Virus record (IMG/VR): IMGVR_UViG_3300019373_000210
Coordinates: 3,520 to 67,519 of that record
Reading direction: 5' to 3' (one strand)
From: a virus
Lineage: Duplodnaviria; Caudoviricetes
Length of the DNA stretch: 64,000 nt
The translations under genes were made by a program, and so were the position numbers. The notes beneath the pieces were generated by a model. The model was not told where the DNA came from, did not search any database, and saw only the letters and a program-made list of their open reading frames with translations. Below, in pieces: positions 7,295-60,701 of this stretch (position 1 is the first letter of the stretch; the number at the start of each line of letters is the position of its first letter).

Positions 7295-7876
7295 TTACTC
7301 GTTGCTCTTCTTCGCGGGAAGCCCGGCGATCTTGCGCCAATGGCGCTCGTCCTTGGCGTCGTCGGAGGCCGTCCCCGCGTTGGGAAGACCGGTCGCGCCC
7401 GACTGTTCGGCGTGCGCCGCGAAAAGGTAGGGCTCTGCGGCCTTCAGCTTCTCCACGTCGCCGTCGTAGTCGTCGAGCACCGCGCGCGCCGCCTTCACGT
7501 TGCGGCAGCCCGCAAGCTGCAGCGCGAAATCGATGCGGTCGGACGCCGCCTGGTTCTTCAGCTTCTCGTTCTCGGATTTCAGGGATTCCGCCTGCTGGCC
7601 CAGCTTCTCGGCGTCGGCCAGCTTGCCTTCGAGCTCGGCAATCTTGCCGTCGCGCTCGGTGATGCTCGCGTCGCGCTTCGCGATTTCGGCAACGTAGTCG
7701 ATTGCGGGCTTTCCCGTTCCCGACGACTTTGACTCATCGTTGGCGGAATTGTCGTTTCCGGAGGCTACCGGCGGCATCCCCGTCGACCCTGAGGTCTGCG
7801 CACTGGCCTGTCCTTCCGCCTGCGCCGCGTCTGCTGCTCCCGCACCATTTGTGATCTCGTTTTCCTTGCCATCCAT
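7295..7876 (-). CDS. Capsid scaffolding protein (Phage GP20-like)
   Basis: Start ATG 7876 with AAAGGCGG RBS; coiled coil then AGCRNVKAARAVLD...EKLKAAEPYLF. Confidence 0.8.
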   Translation of the reverse strand: MDGKENEITNGAGAADAAQAEGQASAQTSGSTGMPPVASGNDNSANDESKSSGTGKPAIDYVAEIAKRDASITERDGKIAELEGKLADAEKLGQQAESLKSENEKLKNQAASDRIDFALQLAGCRNVKAARAVLDDYDGDVEKLKAAEPYLFAAHAEQSGATGLPNAGTASDDAKDERHWRKIAGLPAKKSNE

Positions 7877-7949
7877 TCTTCCGCCTTTCGGTCGAAACGG
7901 CGCGTGGCCCACGCCAACAACACTTGCCACGGATGGAAGGGTAAAGGGG

Positions 7950-8339: not shown

Positions 8340-8600
8340 CTAAACGTCTCCTTGCTCAAATTCGAATAGTTTTTCATCGTCAAGAGACCAGAAACCCTGT
8401 ATTCGTCTTCTTGAAACGATCTTCTCGTTCTCTTCATCGTATTCGATTTCTATCACATCGTATTGAGCATCGTAGTAGCGCCGACACCACTCGGGGTTTT
8501 CTGTCCATTTGTGAGCATCCCTGTCGCGTTGATACCAAAACCCATTCTCTTCTTTTACGACTGAAAAACCCAATTCGAATAGATAGCACTTTCTAATCAT
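8340..8600 (-). CDS. Hypothetical protein, 86 aa
   Basis: Protein-like composition, co-oriented downstream of the ARH gene. Confidence 0.6.
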   Translation of the reverse strand: MIRKCYLFELGFSVVKEENGFWYQRDRDAHKWTENPEWCRRYYDAQYDVIEIEYDEENEKIVSRRRIQGFWSLDDEKLFEFEQGDV

Positions 8601-8640
8601 GCTGAACGCATATCCCTTCTCCTTCGTAGTCCCGATTACG

Positions 8641-9600
8641 CTAGAATCCGCTCAGCCTGTGGCCGTACGCCATGTGTTGCGCGACGCATTCCTCGAATTC
8701 ATCTATCGTCGCTAGGAACTCTTCGGGCAACATCGCGTCTATGTCGTAGCCTTCGACAAGCTCGTCACACCATGCGGGCCATCCCAGCTTCTTCTTTCCT
8801 GTTTCCTCGTAGGGGCCTACACAATCTTCGTCGACGCGGATGACAACATCGTAATCGTCAGTGCCTTCACGGCGCAGCCACTCGCCATAGGGCCGATAGT
8901 AAGCCCAGGCAATGGAGCCAGCGATGGCAGCCTGCGTGTCAGAGTCACCGCCAAGAGATACGGCGTTGCGAACCGCGTCCTCGTAGCTATCTGATTCCAA
9001 GAAGCATTGGATGGCCTGTGGCACCGAACCCTGACAGGTCACGTCGAAGTCGTAGTCTGGGCGTATCGCATTGAGGGATGCAGGCAGCTCGTAGAAGTTA
9101 TCCTTCACGAATGCCCGGATCTCACCCCTCGTCTTTCCGGCTTTCGCCAGGAATATGCACGCTGCCACCGCTTGGGCACCCTTGACGCCCTCTGGATGGT
9201 TGTGTGTCACCTCGGCAGAGGCTTTTGCCAGCTCAAGCGCTTCACCAATCGTGTAGGCATAGAGCCCGCAGGGCGATACGCGCATTGCCGAGCCGTTGCC
9301 GTAGCTGTTGTAGGGTCGGGGGTCGGGCGATTCGAGCCATACCGCGAATCTGCCGCCGTATCCCGCATCTGGAAACCTGCGCCCCATGTCCTGCATCTCA
9401 GCAGCAAGTATTTCCTTGAAGGCGTCTAAGCTGCTGATGTATTGGTCGCGCCATTCCATCAGCGCCCGCGCAACCGCCACCGTCATCACCGTATCGTCGG
9501 TGAACTCGCAACCCTTCGACACGAAGGGGAAATCCTTGGTCTTGATGGGGCGAAACTCGTATTTCGACCCTACTATATCGCCTATTATTGCTCCGTACAT
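8641..9600 (-). CDS. ADP-ribosylglycohydrolase (ARH/DraG family)
   Basis: GAIIGDIVGS, FTDDTVMT, SYGNGSAMR, THNHPEG, LGGDSDT motifs. Confidence 0.92.
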   Translation of the reverse strand: MYGAIIGDIVGSKYEFRPIKTKDFPFVSKGCEFTDDTVMTVAVARALMEWRDQYISSLDAFKEILAAEMQDMGRRFPDAGYGGRFAVWLESPDPRPYNSYGNGSAMRVSPCGLYAYTIGEALELAKASAEVTHNHPEGVKGAQAVAACIFLAKAGKTRGEIRAFVKDNFYELPASLNAIRPDYDFDVTCQGSVPQAIQCFLESDSYEDAVRNAVSLGGDSDTQAAIAGSIAWAYYRPYGEWLRREGTDDYDVVIRVDEDCVGPYEETGKKKLGWPAWCDELVEGYDIDAMLPEEFLATIDEFEECVAQHMAYGHRLSGF

Positions 9601-46343: not shown

Positions 46344-48950
46344 TTATAGCAATCGCACCAGTTCTAAGAACTTGCTGAAATGGTACGCCCCCTCAAGGTG
46401 CGGGTCGCTGTTCTGGAACACCATGTAGTACCTGAACTCGTCACCGATACTGTTCTGCCACTGCCGCCCCATGCGAAGCTTCGCCCGTGTCTCCGGGTTG
46501 TTCAGGTGGTCGCCCTTCGTCTCGATCAGCAGGAGCCGCCCCTTGGCGGTGTACGCCATGAAGTCCGGGTAGTGGTTGGTCAACCCGTTTATCGCGAACT
46601 CTCGCCGGGATATGTTGCGGTGCCACCACACGATGTTGTCCAGGCCCGACAGCGCCATCATCATTTCAAGCTCGAACCCGTTTACACGCTCCTCGCTCTC
46701 GTAGAGCGACTTCGCAACGGGGTTGTCGAGCACGTCGGCCGGGCTTATCGTCTCGGCTAGTTTCCAGGACGGCTTGCAAACGATGGCGGCCCGCTCTATC
46801 TCCTCGCCGAACCGCATCGTGCAGTAATCGCGCTCCAAAGCGTCTATCTTGTCGCGGATCTTCTTCGCGTACACGGTGGGATATTTCTCGAGCGTGGCGA
46901 GCTCGTCACCCGTCATGTCCCCGACGATGCGGTCGATGTACGCCTCGAGTTCGGTAGAGCTCACCGCATCGTCCTTGTTCAGGTATTCGTGCATGATCCC
47001 CTTGCAGATGCGCACCTTGCTCTCGGGCGAGCGCCCGGAGAAGTACTGCTTGATGTAGGCGCTGTCGCGTCCCATCAGCTTCTGGGTAGAAACGCCGCCG
47101 CCCTTCATCACGTCGAGCTTGTACATGTCGAAGTCGATGGACGCGAAATCGATTCGGCTGTCAGCGCCCTTCAACGTGAACCCTTCCAGCAGGTGCGCTT
47201 GCGTCAGCAGCACTTCCTGGCTGTCGCAGAACAGGTTCCCCTCGATCGTCTTGAAGAACTGCGGCAAGGCGAGCGCGAGCGCCTGCTCCCGATACTCGAC
47301 CTTCATGCGGTACCCGTCGCCTAGGCTCGTGAAGAAGTAGCTGATTCCGGCGTCGCCCTGCGCCGACTGCGCCCTCCGCTCGTAGTCCATGGCCTCTCCT
47401 TCGGCGATGGCCGCCATGTCGCCCGCCGCGCTGCCGCCGCCGTGCGCGTGCGAGTCTATGAGCTCGGCAACCTTTCCGTCGTCCCATTCCAGGAAGTCCT
47501 CGGCTCCCGCCTCGTCATCGACCGCAAGCTGCGTTTGCTCCGGCTCACTCGGCGCCTCGTCCTCGACCAGGCCGACTAGGCCCACGTCGTGAGCGCGGTA
47601 GTCCTGCTTGCTGAAGCCCGCGCTGTTCAGCCCCGCAATCACCCGATTCACGGTCGCCTGGAAATCGGCCGACGACGTCAGCACGTAGCTCATGTTCAAT
47701 ACGGGCGTGTCGTATCGCCTCGTGAACGGCTGCCGCAGGATGCGCCCCACGACCTGCTCGACGTCGACCTGCGACGTCTTGTTCGCGAGCGTCGCCAGGA
47801 TGTACGCGTTAGGGCAGTCCCAGCCCTCCTTCAGCGCGTTCACGGTGATTATGAACCGTATCTGGCACGCCGGGTCCATCAGGTCCACGTGCCGAAGCTC
47901 GTTCACGTTCGCAGTCTTGATGGCTATCTGCTCGGCGGGTACGCCGAACTCCACCAGCTTGTCGCGCAGCTTCTCGAAGGTGGTCGAGTCCTCCTTGCCC
48001 TTGGGTTGGGCCTGGAACAGCACGATGGGGCGAATGCCCGCCTCGGAGGCCCCGGCATCGTTTCTGGCTGCCTCTTCGAGGTTCTGCCTGAAGTCGATCG
48101 CGTCTACGAGCACGTCTTCCTTGCTCGACCGGTTGTACACGACCACTGGCAGCTTCACCATGTTCTCGGCCTTGAGCTGCAGGGCGTCCACGTAGCTGAT
48201 CACGTTGCTGTTCTTCGCCGGCGTCGCCGTCAGGTCCAGCACGAAGCACGGGTTGAAGTTGTTCAGCATCTCAAGGCTCAGCGTGCTCTTCGCATGGTGG
48301 CTCTCGTCCACGATCACGAGCGGGTGCAGCTGGTTTATCACCTGTATCAGCGCCGTCTCGTCGGCCCCCTCGATGGGGGAGGCGGGCTCGCCGAGCACCT
48401 CCGCGAAGGGCATCAGGCTGCTGTTCTCCTGGTAGGCCTTGCGCCCCTCCTTCTTCCCCGCGCGGAACGAGTCGTAGCTCAGCACGAATATGCTCAGCTG
48501 CTCGCGCACGCTCGTCGGGCTGAAGTTCTGCCCGACGAGCAGCTGCGCCTTCGTGTACACCTCCACGCGCCCGCCGAAGTCCACGTCGATCTTCTGGCGG
48601 TAGGGGTGAGTCGGGTCGGATAGTGCCTTCGTCGTCTGCTCCAGGATGGCGTCCGACGGCACCAGCCACACGACCGCCCTCGCCTTCGTGAATTCGGCGG
48701 AGTCGAAAATCGGCTTCAGGGCGTTGCAGGCCAGGAAGGTCTTGCCACCGCCGGTGGGCACCTTGAAGCAGACGTGCGGGGCGCCGGCCACGGTGTCGAC
48801 GTACGCCGGTATCCTCGACCCGCCGACCGCCACGCCGCGAAGCGCCCAGTAACTCTTGTAGGCCGCCGCCGCGTCGTGCGTGTCCGCCAGCTCCGCCAGG
48901 TAGGAGCGGAGGTCCTTCATCACCCTGCGTTGATATCTCTTGAGCTCCAT
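46344..48950 (-). CDS. res: Type III restriction subunit (SF2 helicase + PD-(D/E)xK nuclease)
   Basis: KVPTGGGKT, IVDESHH, LKEGWD, GRILR, YPDF..LIETKG. Confidence 0.9.
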   Translation of the reverse strand: MELKRYQRRVMKDLRSYLAELADTHDAAAAYKSYWALRGVAVGGSRIPAYVDTVAGAPHVCFKVPTGGGKTFLACNALKPIFDSAEFTKARAVVWLVPSDAILEQTTKALSDPTHPYRQKIDVDFGGRVEVYTKAQLLVGQNFSPTSVREQLSIFVLSYDSFRAGKKEGRKAYQENSSLMPFAEVLGEPASPIEGADETALIQVINQLHPLVIVDESHHAKSTLSLEMLNNFNPCFVLDLTATPAKNSNVISYVDALQLKAENMVKLPVVVYNRSSKEDVLVDAIDFRQNLEEAARNDAGASEAGIRPIVLFQAQPKGKEDSTTFEKLRDKLVEFGVPAEQIAIKTANVNELRHVDLMDPACQIRFIITVNALKEGWDCPNAYILATLANKTSQVDVEQVVGRILRQPFTRRYDTPVLNMSYVLTSSADFQATVNRVIAGLNSAGFSKQDYRAHDVGLVGLVEDEAPSEPEQTQLAVDDEAGAEDFLEWDDGKVAELIDSHAHGGGSAAGDMAAIAEGEAMDYERRAQSAQGDAGISYFFTSLGDGYRMKVEYREQALALALPQFFKTIEGNLFCDSQEVLLTQAHLLEGFTLKGADSRIDFASIDFDMYKLDVMKGGGVSTQKLMGRDSAYIKQYFSGRSPESKVRICKGIMHEYLNKDDAVSSTELEAYIDRIVGDMTGDELATLEKYPTVYAKKIRDKIDALERDYCTMRFGEEIERAAIVCKPSWKLAETISPADVLDNPVAKSLYESEERVNGFELEMMMALSGLDNIVWWHRNISRREFAINGLTNHYPDFMAYTAKGRLLLIETKGDHLNNPETRAKLRMGRQWQNSIGDEFRYYMVFQNSDPHLEGAYHFSKFLELVRLL

Positions 48951-48959
48951 TTGCGCCGC

Positions 48960-50546
48960 CTAAAGCCGTGCGATGTCTCGCGGGATCTTCTTGAACGTTA
49001 TGCCGAACTCGGCCAGCTCGTCTTCGGACAGGCTGCAGGTGTCGGCGTAGATCACGTAGCCCTCCTGCCGCTCCGTTATCGTCGAGAGGAACGCGTAGTC
49101 GAGCGCCGTGGCAGCGTCCGGCACGTAGTGGAAGTAGTAGCCCGTGCCGTTCGAGTCGCCGAGGTGGTAGGGGTTGCCGCCCTCGGGCGGCTCGAAGGAG
49201 CGCCCCGTCTCCGTGTACCACACGTAGGCGCGTATGCGCTCCGCCCCGACCGCCTCGTTCAGGTTGCCGTCCTCCTTGAACATGCGCTCTCCCAGCTCGT
49301 AGAAGCCGAATGATCCGCCCGTGCCTTCTACTGCCTTCTTGCCTTCGCCGTACCCGTCGATGACGCGCCTCACGCGCTCGGCGGTGATGCTGTCGGCGTA
49401 GTCCATCATCTCGACGAGGATGAACCTACGGTTGCCGCCATCGGACTTGTTCACGTTCAGGACGGCATGCGCCGTGGTGCCGGAACCGGCGAACGAGTCG
49501 AGCACGATGGAGTCCTTGTCGGTCGCAATCTGCAGGATCCGCTCGATGAGGCGTGTGGGCTTGGGGTAGTCGAACACGGCCTTCCCGAGCATCGACGCGA
49601 GCTCCTGCGTTGCCTCCTGCGTGTGCCCGACCTCGGTGTTCGGCCACCAGGTCCAGGTGGTCTTGCCAGGCTTGTCGCGAAGATAGTTCTTCTGCCTCGG
49701 GACACCGTCGCCCGACTCGCCGAACCACAGGCGGCCGCTGTCCCTCAGCTCCTCGTAGACCGAGTACAGGTTCTTCCAGCAGCGGCCCTCCGGAGGCCCT
49801 ATCACCTTGCCGGACGGCGTCTCTATCTCGTACATCTGGTTCGGCCTGAAGCCCTGCGCCGTGAAGTCAACGGAAACCCACGGCCCGTTCGGGTCTTTGT
49901 CCGGGTTCCTGTACTTCTTGGCGTCGTCCTCGCTCAGCGGGACCAGGTTGAGCACGGCTTCGAGGTCGGAGGCGTCCTTCGCGTAAAGGACGATGTATTC
50001 GTGGCCGTTGCTAATCCGCTTCCTGGCGTCGGGAGACGTTCGTTTTTGCCAGATGATGGTCCCGACGTAGTTGCTCTTCCCGAATATCTCGTCGCAGATG
50101 AGCTTCAGGTTCGCGTACTCGTTGTCGTCTATGCTGATGAAAATCGCGCCATTGTCGGCGAGCAGCTTGTAGAGCAGCCGCAGACGCGGGTACATCATGC
50201 AGAGCCATTTGTCGTGGCGGCTAAGGTCCTCGTCTTCGGAGCCGACAACCTCGCCAATCCACTTGCGAATCTTCGGGTCGTTCACGTTGTCGTTGTAGAC
50301 CCACCCCTCGTTGCCGGTGTTGTAAGGCGGATCGATGTACACGCAAGACACGCGCCCCTCGTACTCGGGAAGCAGCGCCTTCAGCGCTTCGAGGTTGTCC
50401 CCGTGGATGACCATGTTGCCCGAATGGGAGCTGCCGTCGTTCTCGCTGGATTCATCGTATTCGTATACGCAGTCGAGCGTCCGAAGCGGCACCTCAAGAT
50501 GGTGGTTGATAACCTTGTTCTTTCCAATCCATTCGAGCGTGGGCAT
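48960..50546 (-). CDS. mod: Type III adenine DNA methyltransferase
   Basis: IHGDNLEALK, IDPPYNTG, YPKP, VLDSFAGSGTT; start ATG 50546 with GGAGG RBS. Confidence 0.92.
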   Translation of the reverse strand: MPTLEWIGKNKVINHHLEVPLRTLDCVYEYDESSENDGSSHSGNMVIHGDNLEALKALLPEYEGRVSCVYIDPPYNTGNEGWVYNDNVNDPKIRKWIGEVVGSEDEDLSRHDKWLCMMYPRLRLLYKLLADNGAIFISIDDNEYANLKLICDEIFGKSNYVGTIIWQKRTSPDARKRISNGHEYIVLYAKDASDLEAVLNLVPLSEDDAKKYRNPDKDPNGPWVSVDFTAQGFRPNQMYEIETPSGKVIGPPEGRCWKNLYSVYEELRDSGRLWFGESGDGVPRQKNYLRDKPGKTTWTWWPNTEVGHTQEATQELASMLGKAVFDYPKPTRLIERILQIATDKDSIVLDSFAGSGTTAHAVLNVNKSDGGNRRFILVEMMDYADSITAERVRRVIDGYGEGKKAVEGTGGSFGFYELGERMFKEDGNLNEAVGAERIRAYVWYTETGRSFEPPEGGNPYHLGDSNGTGYYFHYVPDAATALDYAFLSTITERQEGYVIYADTCSLSEDELAEFGITFKKIPRDIARL

Positions 50547-50704
50547 TAACGCTGCCTCCAATACCTCCGTCATCCAGGCAATCGAATTATAACGCCGATG
50601 AAAACGCCATCACTCGGCCATATGCGGCTGCCTTCAATCGAGACAGAAGGCGTTTGCCCGCGTTCGCGGTACATCGGAACCACGCTTGCAGCGTTATACG
50701 GTTT

Positions 50705-51113
50705 TCTGCTGCCACGCCAGCCATCGGTGCCACCGCGCGCTACGTCATCACGGCTTGGCCGCAGCCCACGCGCCCCCACCTGCGGTCTTCACCGGGCGGC
50801 CGTGCCCCACGGGGCGCACGGCGCATGGAAGCGTCACTGGGCTGCCGTGCCCGCCGGCCCCGTCGCTGCTCCGCGTGTTCCGCCGACCAGCCAAGCCGCT
50901 TCGCGTCTTGTCTGGTGCCCGGCTTCACACGCTACGCAGCGCCGGGTCCGTCGTGCACGGCAGCTCGGAAGGTTGTCGGCTTTGCGCCGTGCGCCCCGTG
51001 GGTCACGGCCGCTTGGGCGCCGGTTCAGCCCGCAGGTGGGGGCGCGTGGGCTGCTACGTTATCTCGGCTGTCCGCGCACGGCGTCACCGATGGCTGACAG
51101 GCGTGGCAGCAGA
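50705..51113. repeat. 409-bp imperfect inverted repeat (single long fold-back)
   Basis: Nested stems, e.g. 50705-50718/51100-51113 (14/14), 50718-50729/51085-51096 (12/12), 50761-50785/51030-51054 (25/25), 50796-50825/50983-51012 (29/30); apex near 50900. Confidence 0.92.
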
Positions 51114-51199
51114 GGTGTGGTGGGTCTGCGGCCGCCACGGCGGAGCTGGCACATGCCGATTGGCCACCGTCTCGGATGCGCCCGGTCCCAGCGAGGGTG

Positions 51200-52096
51200 T
51201 CACGCCCGGACGGCCTCATCATCCACCAAATCCAGGAACCGCCCGTACTCCGGCGCATACGCGAGCCTGACGAGCCCGCAGGACCCATGAGCGTTCCTAG
51301 CCACGGCCACGACCGCCGTCCCGAAATCCGGAGCGTCCGCCCTGGCACCCTCCTCGGGCGTCGAGCTGCGGTCCAGGAGCGTCAGCACGTCGCACTCGTC
51401 CGCCACCGAATCGAGGGCGATCCCGACATCGCAGAGATCGTACCCGCCCTTCCTGACGCACCGCGCGATCCCCTCATGCACACCCACGGTGATGACGACG
51501 GGCAGGCCCATCTCGACGGCGAGATTCTTCATCCGGGCGGCCGCCCAGTCAGCGTCGTGGCCGCAGTTCTCACCGAGGCGCTCGACACCGCAGAGCACGA
51601 CGAGACCGCCGCCGCGCCCGCCTAGGGACTCTTCGACGAGCTCGGTCACGTCGCCTGCGCCGATGTCCCTGCCGCAGCACAGATGCAGGTCGTAGCCCGA
51701 AATCGCCTCCGACGCATCCACGATTCGCTTCAGCTCATCCTCGCCGAGCTCGCCAGCCGAGAGATCCGACAATCCCACCCTTGCTTCCGCCGACAGCGCC
51801 CGCAACGCAACCTGCCGCCTGCTGGTCTCGAGCGTCACGAGGAGCACCGGAGACCCTTGCTTTGCGACCGAGAAGGCAATCTGGCACGCCAGGGTATGCC
51901 TTCCCGCCCTGCTCGTCCCCGCGATGCAGGCGAGCTCGCCAGGCACAAGCCCGCCGAGAACCGCATCCAGGTTCTCCAACCCTGTCGAGAACGATTCTCC
52001 TTCGAACCCCTCGATTCCCTTAACAGTTTTCGTGACGTCCCCGAGTGTCTCTTCGAGAACGCTGCCGATGTTCTCAGCCATGTTTTCGTTGCTCAT
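51200..52096 (-). CDS. DnaB C-terminal-like protein with degenerate ATPase motifs
   Basis: STGLENLDAVLGGLVPGELACIAG, VLLVTLE, LKNLAVE-like region, DSVADECD, VARNAHG; Walker A reads GTSRAGRHT, Walker B LVVLCG. Confidence 0.8.
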   Translation of the reverse strand: MSNENMAENIGSVLEETLGDVTKTVKGIEGFEGESFSTGLENLDAVLGGLVPGELACIAGTSRAGRHTLACQIAFSVAKQGSPVLLVTLETSRRQVALRALSAEARVGLSDLSAGELGEDELKRIVDASEAISGYDLHLCCGRDIGAGDVTELVEESLGGRGGGLVVLCGVERLGENCGHDADWAAARMKNLAVEMGLPVVITVGVHEGIARCVRKGGYDLCDVGIALDSVADECDVLTLLDRSSTPEEGARADAPDFGTAVVAVARNAHGSCGLVRLAYAPEYGRFLDLVDDEAVRA

Positions 52097-52199
52097 TACG
52101 TTACCGTCCTAACGCACGCATGCGTGCATCGAGTAAATGTGATTGTTGAAAATGTTGTTCGGCGAAGCGTGAGAAGCGCCTTGGCCGCAAGGCCAATCG

Positions 52200-52394
52200 C
52201 TATCGCGCCAGGCGCGTGCGCCTCTCGTGATAGGTGGCCCGCCAGTCCGCGCAGATGGCTTTCGCTTCCTCAGCCCTTAGGTTCGGAAACTCCCGCACGA
52301 GGTACGCTGCCGCCAGCACCGTGTTCACCTCGCCGCTATCGCGTAATGCATCCAGGAAGGCGAAGTAATCGCCGTCTGGCACCAGGCTACGCAT
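52200..52394 (-). CDS. Small conserved-looking phage protein, 64 aa
   Basis: YFAFLDALRDSGEVN...AYLVREFPNL..EAKAICADW; start overlaps the yhcG stop. Confidence 0.6.
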   Translation of the reverse strand: MRSLVPDGDYFAFLDALRDSGEVNTVLAAAYLVREFPNLRAEEAKAICADWRATYHERRTRLAR

Positions 52395-53460
52395 CCTCTT
52401 CACCGCTCGCTAGCGCCCTGCGCTCATTGGCCTCGATGGCCATGCGAACTTGTTCAGCCAGCTCCTCTTCATCGGGCATGACCGTCACATAAGTCGAGGC
52501 GAAGATCCGGTTCTCCAAGCCGCCCAGCGCATAGTGAGCATCGATGTTCCGCTTGTCGGTGCACAGGATGATGCCGATGGGCGGGTTGTCGAACTCGTCG
52601 TTGACCTCCTCGGCGTAGTAGTTCAGGTAGGCGTTTATCTGGCCGACGGCGGACGCCATGAGCTTCGACGTCTTGAGTTCGATGAGGACGTAGCTCCGCA
52701 GCAGCTTGTTGTAGAAGACCATGTCGACGTAATTGTGAACGTTGCCGATCGTCACGCGCTGCTGTGTGCCGACGAACCAGAACCCGCGCCCGAGCTCGCG
52801 CATGAACTTCTCGATTTGCGCCACGAGGGCCGCTTCCAAGTCGCTTTCCATGGGCGGCTCGTCCTCGGGAAGGTCCAGGAATTCGAGAACGTAAGGCTCG
52901 CGGATGATGTCTGCGGGATCGCGGGGAACGACGCCCTCGTTAGCCAGGGCCAACACGTGCTCTCGCCTCGCCTCGTCCTTCGCCTTCAACAGGCGCTCGA
53001 ACAGCAGGCTATCCATCTGGCGGCGCATCTCGCGCACACTCCACCCCGAATTCGCCGCTTCATGTTCGTAGAAGCTGCGCCTCTGCGGGTCGCTGACGCT
53101 CATGAGCTCGCAGTAGTGGGTCCATGTCAATTTTCCAGTCACTGACTGGAAAATCTGATGCTCGTTGTAGAACTGCCTCATGTTGTACAGGTTAGTCATG
53201 GAGTAGCCGCGCCCGAGCTCCTTCGTCAATCGCCTCGACAGCTGCTTGATCGTCTGGTCGCCGTATTCCGCACGATCCCTGCCGCGCAGCTCGTAAACCA
53301 CGATCATGCGGCCGTTCAGCCAGTACGAGAGAAGCTGCGTTCGGTTCGTCTCGCGGGCGACATGCCTTTTCGCCGCCCTGTCGACTTTCTTGATGCCCTC
53401 AACCAAGTCCTCGAACGTCTCGGGGTCAACGCTCTCGCGCTCTATGGTCGCAAGCGCCAT
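52387..53460 (-). CDS. yhcG: YhcG/DUF1016 PD-(D/E)xK nuclease
   Basis: YWLNGRMIV, YGDQTIKQLS, LTWTHYCEL, FYEHEA, WSVREM, REPYVLEFL, VDMVFYNKLLRSYVLIELK, GQINAY, PPIGIILC; probable start ATG 53460. Confidence 0.92.
   Translation of the reverse strand: MALATIERESVDPETFEDLVEGIKKVDRAAKRHVARETNRTQLLSYWLNGRMIVVYELRGRDRAEYGDQTIKQLSRRLTKELGRGYSMTNLYNMRQFYNEHQIFQSVTGKLTWTHYCELMSVSDPQRRSFYEHEAANSGWSVREMRRQMDSLLFERLLKAKDEARREHVLALANEGVVPRDPADIIREPYVLEFLDLPEDEPPMESDLEAALVAQIEKFMRELGRGFWFVGTQQRVTIGNVHNYVDMVFYNKLLRSYVLIELKTSKLMASAVGQINAYLNYYAEEVNDEFDNPPIGIILCTDKRNIDAHYALGGLENRIFASTYVTVMPDEEELAEQVRMAIEANERRALASGEEDA
53130..53154. repeat. 25-bp palindrome inside yhcG
   Basis: ATTTTCCAGTCA-C-TGACTGGAAAAT, perfect 12-bp arms; encodes IFQSVTGKL. 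Confidence 0.9.
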
Positions 53461-53471
53461 GTCTCCATCCG

Positions 53472-53500
53472 AGATTTTCCAATCACTGACTGGAAAATCT
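53472..53500. promoter_or_regulatory. Second copy of the yhcG palindrome at operator position
   Basis: 53474-53500 matches 53130-53156 at 26/27 nt; lies 14-38 nt upstream of ATG 53460. Confidence 0.65.
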
Positions 53501-53667
53501 TGGGAGTTGCCATTATCTGCCGGCTGGCCCATCTTTTCCTCCACTCCAATTCCACCACCACTGGCGGCAGAAATCCGTTTCCGCTAAATGATAGCCCATT
53601 GCACGTTGCTTGAGCCAAACCGGGCGGGCCGCGAACTCTCCAGACAGGGTTTGGAATATCTTGAAGG

Positions 53668-55359
53668 TTACGCATTGGAAATCGCCGCCAACTCAGCCGC
53701 CCTCTCTTCCGCTACCTCGGACGATTCCGCATACCATTTCGACCTGAACTCGGCAACCGTCATGGTCACGCCGACCTCGGCTAAGTCCTGTTTCTTTTCT
53801 TGGAAAGTGTCGACAATAATCGAGTCATCGAATTCCACGCGGATTGCGCCTTCATGGGGAAGTTCGATGCCGAAACCTCGCGCGATGTGGAGAAGGGCCC
53901 GCGCGATGCCGGCGATTGACTGTTCCAGTAAATGCTCGTGCCGCGCGATGTTGCGCATAAGCGCGCTGTTGTCGCTTGACACCTCGGTCGCGGTCTTCAC
54001 GTACCCAGTGCTGTCGAAGTCGAAGTACATGATCCCGAGCCCGCACAGGTCTCCGAGCATCTGGAGCGATATGCGCAAGGCTTCGACCTGTGAAGCCGTG
54101 CGAAGCGGGGGCGCGAACTCCTGAATCATGTCATCGGTACTCATGACCTTACGGAAAACGGTGCAATCCTGCTTCCCGAAGGGAATGGAAACCCGCTTCT
54201 TGCCGTCCCTCTCCTTGTCGAAGAGAACATCCGAGAGGAAGACCCTCATCTTGCTCACGTCCACTTCATTGATCATCGCGTCGAAAGCCAAATCAACCGC
54301 TTGGATCGCATCAACGGCATCCGCGAAGATAGATTGCCCGTAAGGACTCATGTCAACGCGCGTGTTCTCTATCGCCGGCTTGACGAGCGAGAAGGTGGGG
54401 AAAGGGCAACCCGTGTCGTATTCCGCGCAGATGCCCTCTGGTTGTATTTCGCTCCCATCTTCATCGAACAGCACCGTGATGATCTTGTACGTGGGGAAAG
54501 TGTCGGTTGGCGACGCCCCGGCACAGCCATCGTCGGCTCTCGATTTAGAAAGCGAAGATTCGGAAAATCCTTCTGCATTTCCATGGGAAGGTGAAGATGC
54601 GGAAGACGATGCAGCGTTGCAACTGTTTCCAGCTTCAGATTGCGAAGGTGAAGCCGAGCTCGCGTTTCCATGCGAAGAAGATGGCGAAAACGCCGCTCCG
54701 ATGCTTCCATGTGAAGGCGAGGAAGGGGAAAGTCCCAGCGCTTGTAAGGATTGGGAAAGGGAAGATGGAGAAGGTGAATCTGTGGAAGGCTCCACCCCGT
54801 CTCCACCCCCGAGCAGGTGCATTTGAAGCTGGTCCACGGCCTGCCCACGGTAGAACGCCCGCGTGACGAAGGCGCATTCCGTGACATGTTCTTCATCCCA
54901 GCTCAGGGGAATGACCATCCTCGCATCGTACCGCCGGATGCGAACGTCTTTCCTGTCTGCGTCGATCCACAGCGCCCACGCGCCGGTCCCCATGCCGAAC
55001 GCCCTAACCACAGTCGCTTGCGCCGAGGGAAAGAACCCGGTCTGGGTGAAGTATTCCTGCAGCCAGTCCGTGCACTCCTGGCTCTCGCATACCACCTGCG
55101 TCTTGTCGTTGAGAAGCAGCGAGCCCCACTCCCTGCAGACGCGCATCGCCGGCCGGATCGAGCGCCTATGTACCTCGTACAACCGCCCAAATCCATCCGA
55201 GTCGCGATAGTCATAGAAAGTCCCTTTGGACTGCATCCACCCGTGCCAGCTGCGTATGTATTCCTCCATGGGCTCCAGGGGATGGCGAAACCCCAGCCCG
55301 CGCAAGTACTCTCGCACGTGCTCCGGCACCCAGTACTCGACCTCTTCTATCTTGCTCAT
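53668..55359 (-). CDS. SPP1-type portal protein with a Ser/Pro-rich insertion
   Basis: RVCREWGSLL, GMGTGAW, PYGQSIFADA, LGDLCGLG, TATEVSSDNS, EFDDSII; start MSKIEE at 55359. Confidence 0.9.
   Translation of the reverse strand: MSKIEEVEYWVPEHVREYLRGLGFRHPLEPMEEYIRSWHGWMQSKGTFYDYRDSDGFGRLYEVHRRSIRPAMRVCREWGSLLLNDKTQVVCESQECTDWLQEYFTQTGFFPSAQATVVRAFGMGTGAWALWIDADRKDVRIRRYDARMVIPLSWDEEHVTECAFVTRAFYRGQAVDQLQMHLLGGGDGVEPSTDSPSPSSLSQSLQALGLSPSSPSHGSIGAAFSPSSSHGNASSASPSQSEAGNSCNAASSSASSPSHGNAEGFSESSLSKSRADDGCAGASPTDTFPTYKIITVLFDEDGSEIQPEGICAEYDTGCPFPTFSLVKPAIENTRVDMSPYGQSIFADAVDAIQAVDLAFDAMINEVDVSKMRVFLSDVLFDKERDGKKRVSIPFGKQDCTVFRKVMSTDDMIQEFAPPLRTASQVEALRISLQMLGDLCGLGIMYFDFDSTGYVKTATEVSSDNSALMRNIARHEHLLEQSIAGIARALLHIARGFGIELPHEGAIRVEFDDSIIVDTFQEKKQDLAEVGVTMTVAEFRSKWYAESSEVAEERAAELAAISNA
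54570..54790 (-). repeat. Degenerate SPSHG-type repeats inserted in frame in the portal gene
   Basis: Core TTCCATG(G/C/T)GAAGGTGAAG on the plus strand; peptide SPSSPSHG / SPSSSHGN / SSPSHGN. Confidence 0.8.
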
Positions 55360-55384
55360 GTCAAAGCTCCAATCCATCAAGTTT

Positions 55385-55850
55385 TAGAAGGTGAAAATGC
55401 AGAAGGCGAAGGCCATCCCCGCTTTCCATGCGAAGGTGAAGAAAGGGAAGGCGAAACCCAGCCCCGTTTTCCATGGGAACACGAGGATTCGGAAGATGAA
55501 GCCCAAGCTCGCTTTCCGTGCGAAGGTGAAGGTTTGGAAGGTGACGTCCGGTCTCGCATTCCATGGGAAGGTGAAGGTGCGGAAGGTCCCGCCCATCCAG
55601 GCCATTTGCTTTCAGGAGGTGAAAATCCCGCCCGTTTCCATGGCGAAGGTGGCGAAAATGCCGCCCGGTTCCAAACTCAAGATTTGGAAGGTGAAGCCGA
55701 GCCCCGTTTTCCATGGGAAAAGCCCGCCCGTAACCATGGCCATGCAGAAGATTTGGAAGGTGAAGGTGAGGAAGGGGGAGGCGAAGCCCATGCCCTGGCT
55801 TCGCCTCCTTGCCTTCCATGGGAGGGTGAAAGTTCGGAAGATGACGCCCC
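55385..55850. repeat. Degenerate 45-bp-period repeat array between terL and portal
   Basis: Units start at 55421, 55466, 55511, 55556; further partial units to about 55845; same core as the portal insertion. Confidence 0.85.
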
Positions 55851-55851
55851 A

Positions 55852-57138
55852 TCATGCACCCCTCAAGGCGTCGTCCATGCAGGCGTAGCGCACGGCGTCG
55901 ATGGAATGGTCGTTGCCGTCGGGGATGTTGTCGATCCAGTTCCCTTCCTTGTCGCGCTCGAACTCCTTCAACGTGAACTCGGCGAAGGTGAGCGGGCAGC
56001 GCTTGGAGTCGATGACAATCTCCCGCAGCCCCGCCAGCCATTCGTACGAAAGCCGCCTCATCCGGGCCTTCCGCGCCGCGTGGATCCGGATGCCAAGGTC
56101 GCGGCGGTACGTCGACATCTGCACCTTTGAATCCGGTGTGTCGTCGCAGTACACGATCTGGTCGTGGAAGTAGGGCTCTCCGCCCTCCTCGTCGGCGTAG
56201 GTCAGCGAATCCACCACGATCTGCCCGGTCTCCGCCGGCATCATCTTGTTGGCCGAGTGCTCCTCGAACACCAGCAGCCGCCGAGCGCCAGGCTCCCAGG
56301 CGCAGCGAACGAAGCGCCACGGATCCGGAAACCAGCCCCAGTCGATCCCGTTGCGCACGCGCTCGAAGTTGCGGATGCGCGAGTCGGAAAGCCTCGCGTC
56401 GTGAACGTTGTCGAATACGGCGCCGCCGGTGCCGACGATCTCTCCCAGGTACTCCCAGCGCCAGGCCGTCTCGTTCGTGTCGCGAAGGTACTCGGCCTCC
56501 TCGATGAATGGCGCGCCCAGCCATTCCGGATGAGACTCGATTACGTCAAGGTAAGACGAGCCGCGAACCAGGGTGTCATCCCTGCGCTTGCGTTCCAGCA
56601 GCTCCACGTTCACCCAGGACCACATCGTCTTCGGCGGGTTATACGAATAGAACACCCAGAAGCGGTCCCCGCCACGGCGAAGCGAGTTCAGGATCGAGCG
56701 CACGGCGTCCAGACCCTCGAACTGATCGAGCTCTTCGAACCAGATCCCAGCACAATACCCCCTCGTGAACTTCACGCCCTTCAGCTTCAGCGGGTCATCG
56801 GCCCCCCGGAAGACGATGCGCTGCCCGGTCGGCGTGTACACGATCTCCATGGGCGATACCTTCGCCCGGAATACGCTGTCGAGCCCCAGGACCTCGATGG
56901 CCCACAAGACCTGCTGGTAGACCGAATCGCGAAGGGTGTTGCCGAACCGGCGCACCACCACGGCGTTCGTCTGCGGGAAGGCGATGATCAGCATCACCAG
57001 GCACACGGATATAAACGAGCTCTTCGTCGAGCCGCGCCCACCGTGAAGCCAGTAGTGGGTATGCCCGTGGGCCATCACGTCGGAAAGCACGGGATGGAAG
57101 CGCTCGATGACGTAGTCGCTAACCTTCGTCACGGCCAT
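55852..57138 (-). CDS. terL: Terminase large subunit, PBSX family
   Basis: GGRGSTKS, VVVRR, IWFEE, YSYNPP, IDWG, DHSIDAVRY; start ATG 57138. Confidence 0.93.
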   Translation of the reverse strand: MAVTKVSDYVIERFHPVLSDVMAHGHTHYWLHGGRGSTKSSFISVCLVMLIIAFPQTNAVVVRRFGNTLRDSVYQQVLWAIEVLGLDSVFRAKVSPMEIVYTPTGQRIVFRGADDPLKLKGVKFTRGYCAGIWFEELDQFEGLDAVRSILNSLRRGGDRFWVFYSYNPPKTMWSWVNVELLERKRRDDTLVRGSSYLDVIESHPEWLGAPFIEEAEYLRDTNETAWRWEYLGEIVGTGGAVFDNVHDARLSDSRIRNFERVRNGIDWGWFPDPWRFVRCAWEPGARRLLVFEEHSANKMMPAETGQIVVDSLTYADEEGGEPYFHDQIVYCDDTPDSKVQMSTYRRDLGIRIHAARKARMRRLSYEWLAGLREIVIDSKRCPLTFAEFTLKEFERDKEGNWIDNIPDGNDHSIDAVRYACMDDALRGA

Positions 57139-57592
57139 CGCCGTCACCTCCGTCCCATTTCTCGCCCTCGTTGGCCTTGGCGCCAGCATCCTCGTCCTCG
57201 TCGGTCATGACCTCCAGTTCTAGGCCAAGCGTCAGCTGCACGGGCTCGTCGGCCTTCTCCTCGCGCCGGTCGGTCTTGCCGAACTCCAGCGGGTACTTGC
57301 GTTCGAGCAGCCAGGCAGCCGCCGTCCAGTGCTGCGGGCGCATCGACGCGTTTCGTATCGTGACCAGGAGGTTCTTCTTGTAATCGACCTCGGCCTTTTT
57401 TAGTTGGTCGCATAATGCGCGTTTCGCAGACCCGGCGCGAGCGTCCTCGCCCTCCTTCAGCCAGCGGTAGAAGGTAGACTTGTGGACGCCCAGCGCCTTG
57501 ATGATGTCGGCGTCGCAGAGGCCGTCCTTCTTCAGGGCGACCGCACGGTCGACCATCTCGTATGTCAGCTTCGTCTTTCTCATGCCGGGCAT
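57119..57592 (-). CDS. terS: Terminase small subunit (HTH)
   Basis: IIKALGVHKSTFYRWL HTH, HWTAAAWLLERKYP; directly upstream of terL. Confidence 0.75.
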   Translation of the reverse strand: MPGMRKTKLTYEMVDRAVALKKDGLCDADIIKALGVHKSTFYRWLKEGEDARAGSAKRALCDQLKKAEVDYKKNLLVTIRNASMRPQHWTAAAWLLERKYPLEFGKTDRREEKADEPVQLTLGLELEVMTDEDEDAGAKANEGEKWDGGDGDGRDEG

Positions 57593-58260: not shown

Positions 58261-59436
58261 TTAGCCATCGTCCTCGCTCCCTCCGCGCCGGATGACCTTG
58301 GCCTTGCTGCCACCCTCCGGGCTGTCTCGCATGAACCTCTTGCTCTTGTCGAGCCAGCGGTTCACGGTGGATGTTGACCAGCCGAGGGCCCGTTCGACCT
58401 CGTCGCGGTATACGAAGCCGGAAGTACCGATCAGGCGGTCGCATACGGCTTCGAGCGAGGCGATCTTGCCGACGTTCTCGGCTTCGAGACGAAGCCGCCT
58501 GGCCTCGGACGCCCCGCCGAAGTTCGGCTTGCAGTCTTCGAGAAGCCCGGTCTCGTCAACCTTGTGCAGCGGGAACACGAACCATGCGTCGAGCGGCGGT
58601 TTCGGCGGGAACTCTCGCAAGGTGAAGGAGATGCGCCACCCCGTCAGGTGCTTAGTTGCCGCAAGTGAGTTGAGTTCGCGTGCCATCTGCAGCGTGCCGG
58701 GTTCCAGGACGAGCTCGGTCATGTCGAGCACGGCGTCGGGCGCGCGTCCGAAAACGCCCGACCCGGAAGACCGGTCAATCGCGCTCTTCATGCCCTGGGC
58801 GCCCTTGGAGTGGTGGTGGGATATCACGACGGTGCAGCCGAGCCCCACGCACAGGCTGTCTAGCTTGGCGAAGAACTCGCGTATGTCGCGGGCGTTGTTC
58901 TCGTCGCCGTCCTGGATCATGTACGCAGGGTCGAGCACGACCATGCCGAAGTCGCCCGGGCGGCAGCGGGAGAACAGCTCGGCTGCGACCTCGCCCAGGC
59001 TGCACGACTTCCCGCGCAGCGGCCAGACGATCAGGTTCTCCGCAACATCGCTCTCGCTCGCGCCCTTGGCGTACGCGACGGTTGATATGCGCCGTTGCAG
59101 CGTGCGCGCGTCGGTCTCGAAGTCGACATAGAGCACGCGCCGCTTCGCGCAGCGGAAGCCCAGCCAGTACGTGCCGGTGGCGACGCTCTCGGCAAGGGCT
59201 ATGAGGCACCATGTCTTGTTCGCCTTCGACGGCCCGGTGAGCAGCATCTTGTGGGTTTCCAGAAGCACGCCCTCGATGATCTCGTCCGGCATCTCAGGAA
59301 GCTCGTCCGCCTTCACGATGGCCCGCTCGAAGGGCGGAAGCCCCGAGCCCGTAGTTGCCGTAACTTCTTCGGCCTCGCAGGGGGATTCGGCGGCCTCGAT
59401 CATCTGGGCGGCGTACTTCTCCTTGCTAGCGCCCAT
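58261..59436 (-). CDS. RepA/AAA_25 replicative helicase
   Basis: LLTGPSKANKT, VLYVDFE, VVLDP, ISHHHSKG, SSGSGVFGRAPD; start ATG 59436. Confidence 0.88.
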   Translation of the reverse strand: MGASKEKYAAQMIEAAESPCEAEEVTATTGSGLPPFERAIVKADELPEMPDEIIEGVLLETHKMLLTGPSKANKTWCLIALAESVATGTYWLGFRCAKRRVLYVDFETDARTLQRRISTVAYAKGASESDVAENLIVWPLRGKSCSLGEVAAELFSRCRPGDFGMVVLDPAYMIQDGDENNARDIREFFAKLDSLCVGLGCTVVISHHHSKGAQGMKSAIDRSSGSGVFGRAPDAVLDMTELVLEPGTLQMARELNSLAATKHLTGWRISFTLREFPPKPPLDAWFVFPLHKVDETGLLEDCKPNFGGASEARRLRLEAENVGKIASLEAVCDRLIGTSGFVYRDEVERALGWSTSTVNRWLDKSKRFMRDSPEGGSKAKVIRRGGSEDDG

Positions 59437-60520
59437 CTCGCCACCTCGTGCGGTACAGCACAAGCCCGGTGCCGGGGGCCGGCTGCGCCTCAAAGTCCCA
59501 TTCCTTGCCCTCGCCGCGCATGAGCCACTCGTCCATGTCCTTCGCGCCGTCAGGGTAGGGAGGCACGGGGTTGCACGCCACGCCCATGCGCCCGAGGTTA
59601 CCGCAAATTTGCTCGGCGGTCTTGCGTCCCTCGTCGTCCTCGTCCATGCAGACGACGACCTTCCCCGGGCGCTTGTCGGCGTCAGTGTGGTACAGGACGC
59701 TCGCCAGGCGCTTCGCGTTGGCAACGCCGCCGAGGGCCACGACGGGGTAGTTGACCACCTTGGCTATGGCCATGGCGTCGATCAGGCCCTCGGCCACCAT
59801 CACCACGGGAAGCGATGCGGAAAGCATCCACTCGTTCCAGAGGGGGCTCGCGACGCCCTTGGGCCTCCATTCCTTGTTGCGCACCTCGCCGCGGCTAATC
59901 GTGCGCACCATGCAGTAATGGGCCTCGGTGAAGTCCCGGTTCCAGAAGGGGATCGTGATGAAGCCCAGCGCCTCGGGCTCGTACACGCGGAACTGGGGCA
60001 TTATCTCCCTGGGATCCCGCGTGAATCCGAGGCCCCATCGGGCTGCGTCGTCGTCATCGAGGCCACGGTATCGCAGGTAGCGCCGGCCGACCTCGTTGCC
60101 GGGCGTGTACAGGTTCCCGAACGCCCAGCCGCATTGCTCGTAGCAGTTCTCCGCGCCGGCCTCCCTCGGGGGATCGAACGGCGGCCTCGGTTTCTTCTTG
60201 GGCCTCGGCCTGGGCTCTTGCCCCGTTCCATCGTCGTCTCCCAGCCGGTAGCCGACGATGTCGGCGACAGCCCTGGCCTGATCGGCGAAGCCGCTTATGC
60301 CGTCAGCCTCGCCGATTAGACTGAAGACGTCCCATGTCTTGCCGCATCCGAAGCAGTGGACCGTGTTGCCGTTCTCGTAGTAGTGCGCGGAAGGGTCGCT
60401 GTCCTCGTGGTTCGGGGACAGGCAGCTGAAGGAGCGGTTCAGGTTCGTTATGCCGAAGCGCTCGTGCAGCAGGTCCGGCATCGACTCGCGCAGGTCGTCG
60501 CGCTCGCGCTCGCTAATCAT
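59426..60520 (-). CDS. DNA primase (CHC2 Zn finger + TOPRIM)
   Basis: FSCLSPNHEDSDPS..HCFGCG, VAEGLIDAM, CMDEDDEG. Confidence 0.9.
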   Translation of the reverse strand: MISERERDDLRESMPDLLHERFGITNLNRSFSCLSPNHEDSDPSAHYYENGNTVHCFGCGKTWDVFSLIGEADGISGFADQARAVADIVGYRLGDDDGTGQEPRPRPKKKPRPPFDPPREAGAENCYEQCGWAFGNLYTPGNEVGRRYLRYRGLDDDDAARWGLGFTRDPREIMPQFRVYEPEALGFITIPFWNRDFTEAHYCMVRTISRGEVRNKEWRPKGVASPLWNEWMLSASLPVVMVAEGLIDAMAIAKVVNYPVVALGGVANAKRLASVLYHTDADKRPGKVVVCMDEDDEGRKTAEQICGNLGRMGVACNPVPPYPDGAKDMDEWLMRGEGKEWDFEAQPAPGTGLVLYRTRWRDGR

Positions 60521-60701
60521 GTCGCCACCCCCTGCCCGCACTCATGTAGACCTTGTCGGCGCGAAGGTTGCCGCAATTAATGGGAGTTGCGGTCATATAA
60601 TCCGAATCGGAGCGCACAGCGCCCCGGCATCCCGCGTCCTGCAGCCGGTCGCCCGCCAAAGCCCTGGCTGCAGGTCGCATGCCAACAGTCGCCCTCATCA
60701 T
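60513..60701 (-). CDS. Possible 62-aa hypothetical protein
   Basis: ATGA overlap with xis stop; its stop overlaps the primase start. Confidence 0.35.
   Translation of the reverse strand: MMRATVGMRPAARALAGDRLQDAGCRGAVRSDSDYMTATPINCGNLRADKVYMSAGRGWRHD

Follow-up and report, generated by a model that had tools for sequence, protein, structure and literature searches.

A stretch of 64,000 nucleotides from a tailed-phage record, referred to here as the window (the last 64 kb of the 67.5-kb IMG/VR virus record IMGVR_UViG_3300019373_000210), contains a 409-nt fold-back at positions 50705 to 51113. This near-palindrome belongs to an undescribed family of approximately 400-base hairpins found in prophages of gut Coriobacteriia, where they closely follow the portal gene and adjoin a block of interchangeable anti-phage defence genes. 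It is firmly established that the pairing of the two arms has been preserved, that the design of one strand favours folding and that of the other disfavours it, and that the orientation with respect to the late genes has been kept. The explanation we favour is that the fold-back is a conserved cis-acting element in the backbone of a temperate Coriobacteriia siphophage lineage, where it would act as a single-stranded hairpin of the late-gene sense strand. No description of this element was found in Rfam or in the papers searched.

Structure and strand asymmetry of the fold-back

Analysis of positions 50705-51113 confirmed that the fold-back in the window is genuine, and either strand folds as one unbranched hairpin. 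The minimum free energy calculated with RNA parameters was -306.4 kcal/mol for the plus strand (z -14.8), a value equalled by none of 100 shuffles, whereas the minus strand gave -309.5 kcal/mol (z -18.2), again unequalled by any shuffle. These values bore out a preliminary description, made from the nucleotide sequence alone, in which a single hairpin had been proposed. When DNA parameters were used, the minimum free energy was -204.7 kcal/mol for the sense strand and -179.4 kcal/mol for the antisense strand. The better-folding strand is the minus strand, which is the sense strand of the late genes and bears the purine-purine mismatches. The paired regions include a stem of 14 bp (50705-50718 with 51100-51113), another of 11 bp (50719-50729 with 51085-51095), a third of 25 bp (50761-50785 with 51030-51054), and one of 9 and 20 bp interrupted by one mismatch (29 of 30 positions, 50796-50825 with 50983-51012). 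Of the stems listed in the preliminary description, those of 14, 25 and 29/30 bp were recovered, as was an apex near 50900, while the second one, given there as 12/12, was mapped as 11 bp. The hairpin does not occupy the whole intergenic gap, as had been stated, since spacers of 86 nt (51114-51199) and 131 nt (50574-50704) flank it. The element occurs once in the 67.5-kb record.

The apex (50898..50904) reads GCGAAGC on the minus strand, a C-GAA-G triloop that fits the GCGNAGC mini-hairpin, known as a short DNA hairpin of very high stability; the corresponding loop on the plus strand is TTC at 50900-50902. It lies within an apical module of 90 nt (50857..50946, minus strand) with GUA/GGA and GAA/GGA purine loops, which is the most widely conserved part of the element and was the source of the covariance model R1. 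Farther from the apex, a loop sequence is present as a direct repeat on opposite arms, with the left copy at 50741..50760 (...GATGACGTAGCG... on the minus strand) and the right copy, which is conserved in the related contig L008, at 51055..51073 (...GATAACGTAGCAG... on the minus strand). The direct-repeat character of these loops was confirmed (50739-50755 versus 51053-51069, 15 of 17 positions identical), and so were the readings of GGAAG on both arms, GCTCCGC opposite GCTACGC, and ACGCTA at 50929-50934, which is TAGCGT on the minus strand. The two arms have 23 mismatches, and in 22 of them a pyrimidine faces a pyrimidine on the plus strand, which is a purine facing a purine on the minus strand. 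The dyad symmetry noticed earlier at the non-palindromic positions follows this strand-specific rule, and the two-fold symmetric loops are a special case of it. The 3′ flank in the sense direction (50656..50704, minus strand) is conserved and A-rich, and includes a small stem, CCGCG-N2-CGCGG, at 50658-50669. The blastn homology with related phages stops at 50656, and variable cargo lies beyond.

The arms were compared across homologues by aligning the left arm to the complement of the right arm with a simple scoring scheme, and the non-Watson-Crick positions were classed on the late-gene sense strand. Among six diverged copies, 93.0% of the cells were paired versus 81.7% in shuffles, and double changes were found in 55 of 140 pairs versus 21.5 in shuffles; none of 500 shuffles reached the observed values of pairing and double changes. 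One-sided (wobble) changes were present in 11 pairs as compared to the 55 with double changes, and pairing dropped to 27-43% when the alignment registers were slid. Gene conversion between the arms could inflate the apparent covariation in these figures, but it cannot account for the conserved oriented mismatches. Long palindromes are normally a liability for phages and plasmids, being unstable, open to cleavage by hairpin nucleases and able to set off certain defence systems. The persistence of a 400-bp near-palindrome throughout the lineage, with its pairing preserved despite drift, therefore implies a real function.

The 23 non-redundant hairpins contained 3443 Watson-Crick pairs on the sense strand, together with 180 G·T versus 70 A·C oppositions and 591 purine-purine versus 113 pyrimidine-pyrimidine mismatches, for which the local purine skew predicts a ratio of 1.39:1 (p ~5e-49). 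The commonest mismatches were A·G and G·A, with G·A mismatches three times as common as G·U pairs, and the mismatch positions were shared among homologues. Purine-purine mismatches need transversions, whereas the neutral decay of a palindrome would leave transition mismatches without strand bias. The motifs that recur on the sense strand are tandem GA in a CGAG context and facing three-base GNA loops (GGA/GGA, GUA/GGA, GAA/GGA), and they result in an extreme asymmetry of words between the sense and the antisense strands (CGGAGC 50:0, CGGAG 76:1, CGTAG 40:0). The covariation, the family-wide purine-purine mismatches and the conserved orientation back the earlier suggestion that the sequence has been selected as a single-stranded structure.

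The tip of the hairpin is C-GNA-G in 24 of 32 hairpins (GAA in 13, GCA in 10, GTA in 1) and GNNA in four more, all of them closed by C-G. A GNA or GNNA loop with C-G closure and a stem flanked by G-C corresponds to the GCGNAGC/GCGNNAGC DNA mini-hairpin. Only one of the four tetraloops is of the GNRA type. The sense strand was the more stable one in 31 of the 32 hairpins when DNA parameters were used (mean gain 29 kcal/mol), and the mean gain with RNA parameters was 21 kcal/mol; the sense orientation relative to the portal gene was likewise found in 31 of 32. Clusters of loops alternate with perfect stems of 20-25 bp at approximately 42-45 nt, and the mismatches showed no helical periodicity (10-11 nt). 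The base of the stem is conserved, with (T)CTGCCGCC or TTTGCCGCC on one side and GGCGGCAGA or GGCGGCAAA on the other, and the 3′ flank is A-rich across loci, commonly ATAAATTC.

Distribution of the hairpins and their genomic neighbourhood

The family was surveyed in viral contigs and in 151 plus 401 sampled genomes (L-numbers designate related viral contigs or loci and G-numbers sampled genomes). Five other viral contigs were found to carry the element when they were scanned with an 18-mer of the apex, with a 21-mer taken out of the 25-bp stem and with a gapped pattern that spans both arms. The L006 hairpin is 97-100% identical to that of the window, as against about 66% for the central part of the DnaB-like gene next to it, and homology ends at 50656, 49 nt past the stem. 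One of the 11 differences between window and L006 is compensated (T to C at 50848 with A to G at 50957). The L008 and L035 hairpins share 88% and 77% identity with the window and are found directly after the portal gene, without a YhcG or a DnaB-like gene. Alignment of the portal gathered 61 related viral loci, and most of those with sufficient downstream sequence include a near-palindrome of 380-450 nt located 150-2500 nt downstream of the portal gene. The outliers in length (two of 542 nt, one of about 165 nt and one of about 280 nt) extend the overall range to 165-542 nt. This wider family was identified by a scan for self-complementarity downstream of portal homologues, which missed at least one true copy (L134). 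A search with nhmmer and a four-sequence profile retrieved the nearer homologues only, most copies being too diverged.

The covariance model R1, built on the apical 90 nt from alignment A5, detected the sense-strand module at 42 places over 56 sources. Owing to misalignment of the arms by MAFFT from one subfamily to another, the model retained only 8 base pairs and behaves largely like a sequence profile. Matches to R1 were found once each in 4 of the 151 sampled Coriobacteriia genomes, always in this type of prophage where the context was readable, and three of the four have a portal homologue no more than 1.5 kb upstream. A single copy is present in G358, G106 and G458, and G187 has one strong copy and one short copy. 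In other searches, the gap had no blastn match among GenBank phages or PLSDB plasmids, the gapped two-arm pattern found 24 matches in genome contigs, all by chance in unrelated high-GC genomes, a 20-mer scan of metagenome contigs found 10, all by chance, and the matches of a 16-mer scan of viral contigs were mostly chance as well. The spacer between portal and hairpin is not structured (z ~ -1) and not clearly coding.

Variant arrangements were observed at several loci. Two tandem hairpins, of 358 nt and approximately 530 nt, occupy L116:4153-5090. The L072 element (8237-8757) is Y-shaped, with two inner arms on one outer stem, and each inner arm ends in the apical motif ACAGACC(C/G)GC-G(A/CA)A-GC(G/C)GGGCTGT. 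In both L078 and L113 the portal gene is followed by a small copy, and a further gene separates this from a full copy; in L113 the gene between the small first copy (~7470-7830) and the full one codes for an HNH-endonuclease-like protein of 547 aa. The copies in L110 and L114 are truncated and retain the base and flank. The full copy in L113 (9547-9998) is a natural 'flop' isomer: its interior is inverted on the portal strand (35 pyrimidine-pyrimidine versus 3 purine-purine mismatches), and the stem base and the 3′ flank are in the standard orientation. Such an inverted interior is what a crossover between the arms would produce. Its presence in just one of 32 hairpins speaks for selection on orientation.

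The relevant genes of the window are all on the minus strand, in the order primase (59426-60541), helicase (58261-59724), terS, terL (55852-57189), portal, YhcG nuclease, DnaB_C-only protein, hairpin, type III mod and res and P-type ATPase, followed by a block of about 36 kb with ~50% GC and by the scaffold, major capsid, head-tail adaptor, Dit, Tal and tail fibre genes. From this order it follows that the hairpin sits within a large portal-to-scaffold insertion of a siphophage. The host was taken as a member of the Coriobacteriia because the named terL homologues (62-76% identical) belong to Olsenella, Enorma, Collinsella and Eggerthellaceae, and the assignment depends solely on those names. 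The portal gene (53668..55380, minus strand; phrog_533, 4.6e-74) is the conserved upstream anchor of the hairpin. The two genes that follow it are optional. A YhcG/DUF1016 PDDEXK nuclease gene (52387..53544, minus strand) is shared with L006 and L068 and not with most loci, and the gene for the DnaB_C-only protein of 298 aa (51200..52096, minus strand; Pfam PF03796, 4e-22) lies outside the conserved element. The 86-nt spacer between the stop codon of the latter and the hairpin (51114..51199, minus strand) is 72-86% identical to that of L006. The DnaB-like protein had been described as dead, and its degenerate Walker A motif agrees with this, since it reads GTSRAGRHT, with Arg replacing Lys, where GxxxxGK(T/S) is expected; judging from this motif, the protein is probably an inactive ATPase. 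A homologue with 63% identity was found in L002-L004.

The variable defence cargo starts on the other side of the hairpin. Its first genes in the window are those of a type III restriction-modification system (46344..50573, minus strand), with mod at 48960-50573 (Pfam N6_N4_Mtase, 1.2e-40) and res at 46344-48950 (ResIII, 2.5e-17). Different cargo is found at the equivalent place in L006, L008, L035 and 18 other loci. In L006 the genes next to the hairpin encode a GmrSD-HNH protein and an EcoRI-like methylase, and in L008 they encode a C5 methylase, DUF4928, invertase and JAB/ThiF proteins and an FtsK-like protein. The first genes in 18 further loci code for methylases, type IIG or III enzymes, Abi_2, McrBC-like AAA_5, HATPase with Z1, BrxC, an SNF2 helicase, AAA_2 with DUF6414 and, once, a major facilitator superfamily (MFS) transporter. 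The pair formed by an AAA_2 ATPase and DUF6414 was observed in opposite orientations in L079:8332-10276 and L090:9223-11173 and may be an uncharacterised two-gene defence system. The cargo genes can be on either strand; for example, Abi_2 is on the opposite one in L074 and L089.

Phages cease to be homologous 8-50 nt past the stem on its 3′ side, where unrelated defence genes take over. The mod gene is preceded by GTTATAAT (50574-50640, minus strand), a good -10 box, and L006 has GATTATAAT at the equivalent place before an unrelated methylase, so that each cargo seems to bring its own promoter. Genes are also present between the portal and the hairpin in the window, L006, L068 and L113, so the element is internal to the cargo hotspot and does not strictly form its border. 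The cargo extends for 4.4 kb in L079, about 10 kb in L035 and about 43 kb in the window before the backbone of the phage is met again at the scaffold gene, which in the window occupies 7295..7930 (minus strand). There is no conserved non-coding partner element at the far (right) edge of the cargo, and a search for capsid genes in three related records, aimed at this edge, found nothing.

Other features of the window were observed at a distance from the hairpin. A canonical bidirectional terminator hairpin at 7984-8010 (AAAAGCGCTCC-AAGC-GGAGCGCTTTT), approximately 55 nt upstream of the start of the scaffold gene, closes the cargo block and suggests that the scaffold and capsid genes have a promoter of their own. 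About 36 kb with ~48-54% GC (window 8000-44000) separate the high-GC (58-68%) portal side from the scaffold/capsid side, and this block includes Ter-associated genes, a macro domain and an ADP-ribosylglycohydrolase. With the block included, the prophage would be oversized for an ordinary siphophage head. The phage backbone looks Coriobacteriia-derived, and the block may point to a prophage that is defective, to acquisition from another phylum or to a chimeric assembly. The gap between terL and portal (55387-55576) contains a tandem array of 45 bp (4.2 copies, 72% matches), with no evident similarity or relation to the hairpin, although hairpin modules also recur at ~45 nt.

Possible roles of the element

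We favour, tentatively and with not far short of an even chance, the view that the element is a folded single-stranded DNA signal on the sense strand, used for priming or recombination. Here we infer that DNA is the molecule that folds. If replication forks or a rolling-circle tail were codirectional with late transcription, the sense strand would be the lagging or displaced one. The exposed strand would then snap into a rod resistant to single-strand binding protein and nucleases, nucleated by the GCGNAGC mini-hairpin, and the C·T and C·C mismatches would block folding of the complementary strand and hence the extrusion of a cruciform. Such a rod could be a landing pad for priming or helicase loading, in the manner of a single-strand initiation (ssi) or primosome-assembly site. 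Alternatively, it could function as a recombination joint, which would be in keeping with the swapping of the adjacent genes. In favour of DNA, the tips obey the GCGNAGC/GCGNNAGC rule rather than GNRA, and wobble pairs and one-sided changes are scarce. A review (PMC13037366) reports this motif from the primase origins of G4, St-1 and alpha3 and from ssiA, and attributes to the DNA hairpin a markedly higher stability than to its RNA counterpart; the dependence of the motif on its closing pair has also been described (PMC3201870). The single-strand overhangs of Streptomyces telomeres, which have GCA loops closed by sheared G:A (PMC4513846), come from the same phylum and were counted on the side of DNA.

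Several points weigh against a DNA signal. The sense strand is lagging or displaced only if replication proceeds in the appropriate direction, no partner protein was identified, and the phage primase and helicase genes are ~7-9 kb away. The element is found just after a gene in the transcribed orientation, where an RNA structure would be equally natural, and RNA parameters also favour the sense strand in most homologues. The stability of tandem GA and of purine-rich 3x3 loops extends to RNA, and we know of no single-stranded DNA stage documented for tailed double-stranded DNA phages beyond replication intermediates. The element is seemingly missing from four portal relatives (L085, L101-L103), which indicates that it is not indispensable. 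Part of the covariation could derive from gene conversion between the arms, without selection on folding. A more ambitious version, in which a strand-selective DNA fold-back on the displaced or lagging strand organises the defence-gene hotspot and is the priming or recombination site for the replication or swapping of cassettes between phages, is in our judgement improbable; if true, it would be a phage counterpart of the logic of attC or ssi, so far undescribed. The general interpretation in the preliminary description was supported in part. A single-strand DNA signal and a structured RNA are still two live options. The proposed ssoA origin and DnaB partner were not supported, the latter because the DnaB-like gene is missing from most hairpin-bearing loci, where the hairpin is mostly located directly after portal.

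The sense RNA of the late transcript (terS-terL-portal) could instead form the long cis-acting rod, an explanation that we rate only slightly below the DNA signal. The rod could then be a stabiliser of the 3′-end, a processing site of the RNase III type, a terminator or insulator devoid of a U-tract that separates the packaging genes from the cargo, or a put-like antiterminator acting across it. At most loci the hairpin is located 150-300 nt past the stop codon of portal, and 31 of 32 hairpins have the sense orientation; these two observations, the advantage of sense over antisense RNA (mean 21 kcal/mol) and the excess of G·U over A·C on the sense strand (180 to 70) all fit an RNA. So do the perfect 20-25 bp stems with loop clusters every ~42-45 nt, an alternation that resembles stacked sites for double-strand RNases, and the presence of a separate terminator for the cargo ahead of the scaffold gene, so that the late genes may perhaps be split into separate units. 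However, cmscan of 49500-52500 against Rfam on both strands gave no match at E up to 1, a sigma-70 consensus scan found no promoter, and there is no U-tract after the stem in the window or the homologues, where the flank is A-rich. Furthermore, the tips are GNA triloops and not GNRA or UNCG tetraloops, the G·U pairs are few (180 versus 3443 Watson-Crick) and outnumbered threefold by G·A, which is unusual for an RNA selected for stability only, and 400 nt is far beyond the needs of termination or stabilisation. A canonical intrinsic terminator was considered and rejected: the scan found 0 terminator-like sites, and the 3′ flanks are A-rich (e.g., AGATAAATTC or AAAACTCGA) with no U-tract. That the region codes for a protein can practically be dismissed. 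The plus strand has long frames (e.g., 50598-51290, 230 aa), and the antisense frames of the family are strikingly open, with 54 stops versus ~163 expected from composition and 55 of 96 frames open. Nevertheless, the three antisense frames do not differ in openness and none of them is conserved on its own, there is no Pfam or PHROG match, the substitutions are paired compensatory changes without codon periodicity, and every frame of the sense strand is interrupted by stops (242 altogether). The depletion of stops is explained by the location of the purines on the other strand.

A recombination joint, in which defence cassettes would be exchanged or captured because the palindrome is a hotspot or the site of a hairpin-specific recombinase, is unlikely, even though several observations are in its favour. 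The homology between phages ends 8-50 nt after the 3′ stem base with unrelated defence genes next to it, the hairpin and its near flanks form a patch of 97% identity within a pair that is 66-80% identical, copies are duplicated, tandem or branched in L116, L078, L113 and L072, and the L113 interior is flipped between intact stem bases, as from a crossover between the arms. In addition, structure is conserved over sequence and the asymmetry is strand-specific, as in attC. Against it, there is no conserved adjacent recombinase (an invertase is found in L008 only) and the far end of the cargo lacks a counterpart of the element, most loci have one copy and not one for each cassette, the cargo consists of multi-gene blocks with promoters of their own, and ordinary homologous recombination between portal and scaffold explains the mosaicism without a hairpin. 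It is very unlikely that the element is a selfish fold-back repeat, of the type of miniature inverted-repeat transposable elements (MITE) or REPIN, or a neutral inverted duplication homogenised by gene conversion, with no function for the phage. The long terminal inverted-repeat structure, the enrichment of GTAG-containing words, and the length variants and partial deletions (L110, L114) would be compatible with such an origin. However, there is a single copy in the record and in G358, G106 and G458, R1 matched only once in each of four of the 151 Coriobacteriia genomes, in this prophage type where the context was readable, position and orientation are fixed relative to the portal gene, and no target-site duplication is visible in the flanks. 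Neutral decay, which generates G·T and A·C without strand bias, does not produce 591 purine-purine versus 113 pyrimidine-pyrimidine mismatches.

At the hotspot marked by the element, prophages of gut Coriobacteriia exchange defence genes such as those of restriction-modification, Abi and BREX. The element gives access to the way in which such hotspots are constructed and provides a testable strand-specific DNA (or RNA) structure in a tailed phage. The opposition of purine-purine to pyrimidine-pyrimidine mismatches between arms is a signature that can be searched for in other DNA. To our knowledge, no phage element has been described in which a mini-hairpin tip goes together with dozens of conserved G·A mismatches on a single strand and with a complement unable to fold. 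If the DNA signal or the recombination joint is upheld, the element may be a kind of its own.

Comparison with known systems

The element fails every testable defining feature of ssi sites and Frpo, of telomeric and parvovirus-type fold-backs, of attC and of phage RNA hairpins. Other systems are also different. MITE and REPIN elements have many dispersed copies and target-site duplications, unlike the element, which occurs once in the record and has flanks without duplication. The telRL site of N15-type phages is a perfect palindrome accompanied by a protelomerase gene, whereas the palindrome described here is imperfect and belongs to a terS/terL phage, in which no search aimed at a protelomerase was made. 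A relationship with ssoA origins had been proposed on the basis of the TAGCGT hexamer. The ssoA origin is also an orientation-specific long imperfect hairpin, and its CS-6 hexamer is in the terminal loop. In the window, TAGCGT (minus strand, 50929-50934) is in an internal GUA/GGA loop ~27 nt from the apex, where GAA forms the terminal loop; no more than 5 of 23 non-redundant homologues have the hexamer, and neither a sigma-70-type promoter nor a rolling-circle context was found, so this relationship was not sustained. No rolling-circle Rep protein was seen among the open reading frames scanned, which were not all those of the record, and the context is that of siphophage terS, terL, portal, primase and helicase genes.

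Lambda sib, the T7 RNase III sites and put-type RNAs are cis-acting hairpins in polycistronic phage transcripts, with internal loops that tune cleavage. These processing hairpins are 60-100 nt long and do not have the purine-purine rule or the GNA triloops. The attC sites conserve structure over sequence, have the strand chosen by unpaired bases, a conserved stem base and variable length, and abut exchangeable cassettes. They differ in being 57-141 nt long, one per cassette, and in being accompanied by an IntI integrase, while the element is 165-542 nt long, with one (rarely two) per locus and no adjacent integrase among the open reading frames scanned.

The telomere overhangs of Streptomyces come, like the element, from Actinomycetota; they are single-stranded DNA palindromes, as is proposed for the element, with GCA loops and sheared G:A, and are a platform for priming proteins (PMC4513846). 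Parvovirus-type terminal hairpins share the imperfect palindromes, the oriented 'bubbles' and the flip/flop inversion, seen here in L113. However, these fold-backs are the physical ends of linear replicons and include several short palindromes, whereas the element is internal, forms one long rod and belongs to a phage with terS/terL packaging.

The single-strand initiation signals (complementary-strand origins of G4, St-1 and alpha3, and ssiA and ssiB of RSF1010) have GCGNAGC or GCGNNAGC mini-hairpins at the tip (PMC13037366), and Frpo of the F plasmid is a long imperfect stem (PMC11541004). Both are strand-specific DNA hairpins that are functional only when the strand is single-stranded, and Frpo is placed before establishment and anti-defence genes. 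They are found on replicons with an obligatory single-stranded DNA stage, such as phages with single-stranded DNA or transferred plasmid strands, and are mostly much shorter. Frpo is in the leading region of a conjugative element, ahead of genes on the transferred strand, and has -35 and -10 boxes in its stem; in 50300-51500, neither strand gave a match to the sigma-70 consensus (0 sites), but this absence is of limited weight since Actinomycetota promoters fit the consensus poorly. The element described here belongs instead to a prophage of a tailed double-stranded DNA phage, forms a rod of ~400 nt with dozens of G·A mismatches, and is adjacent to defence genes that can be in either orientation.

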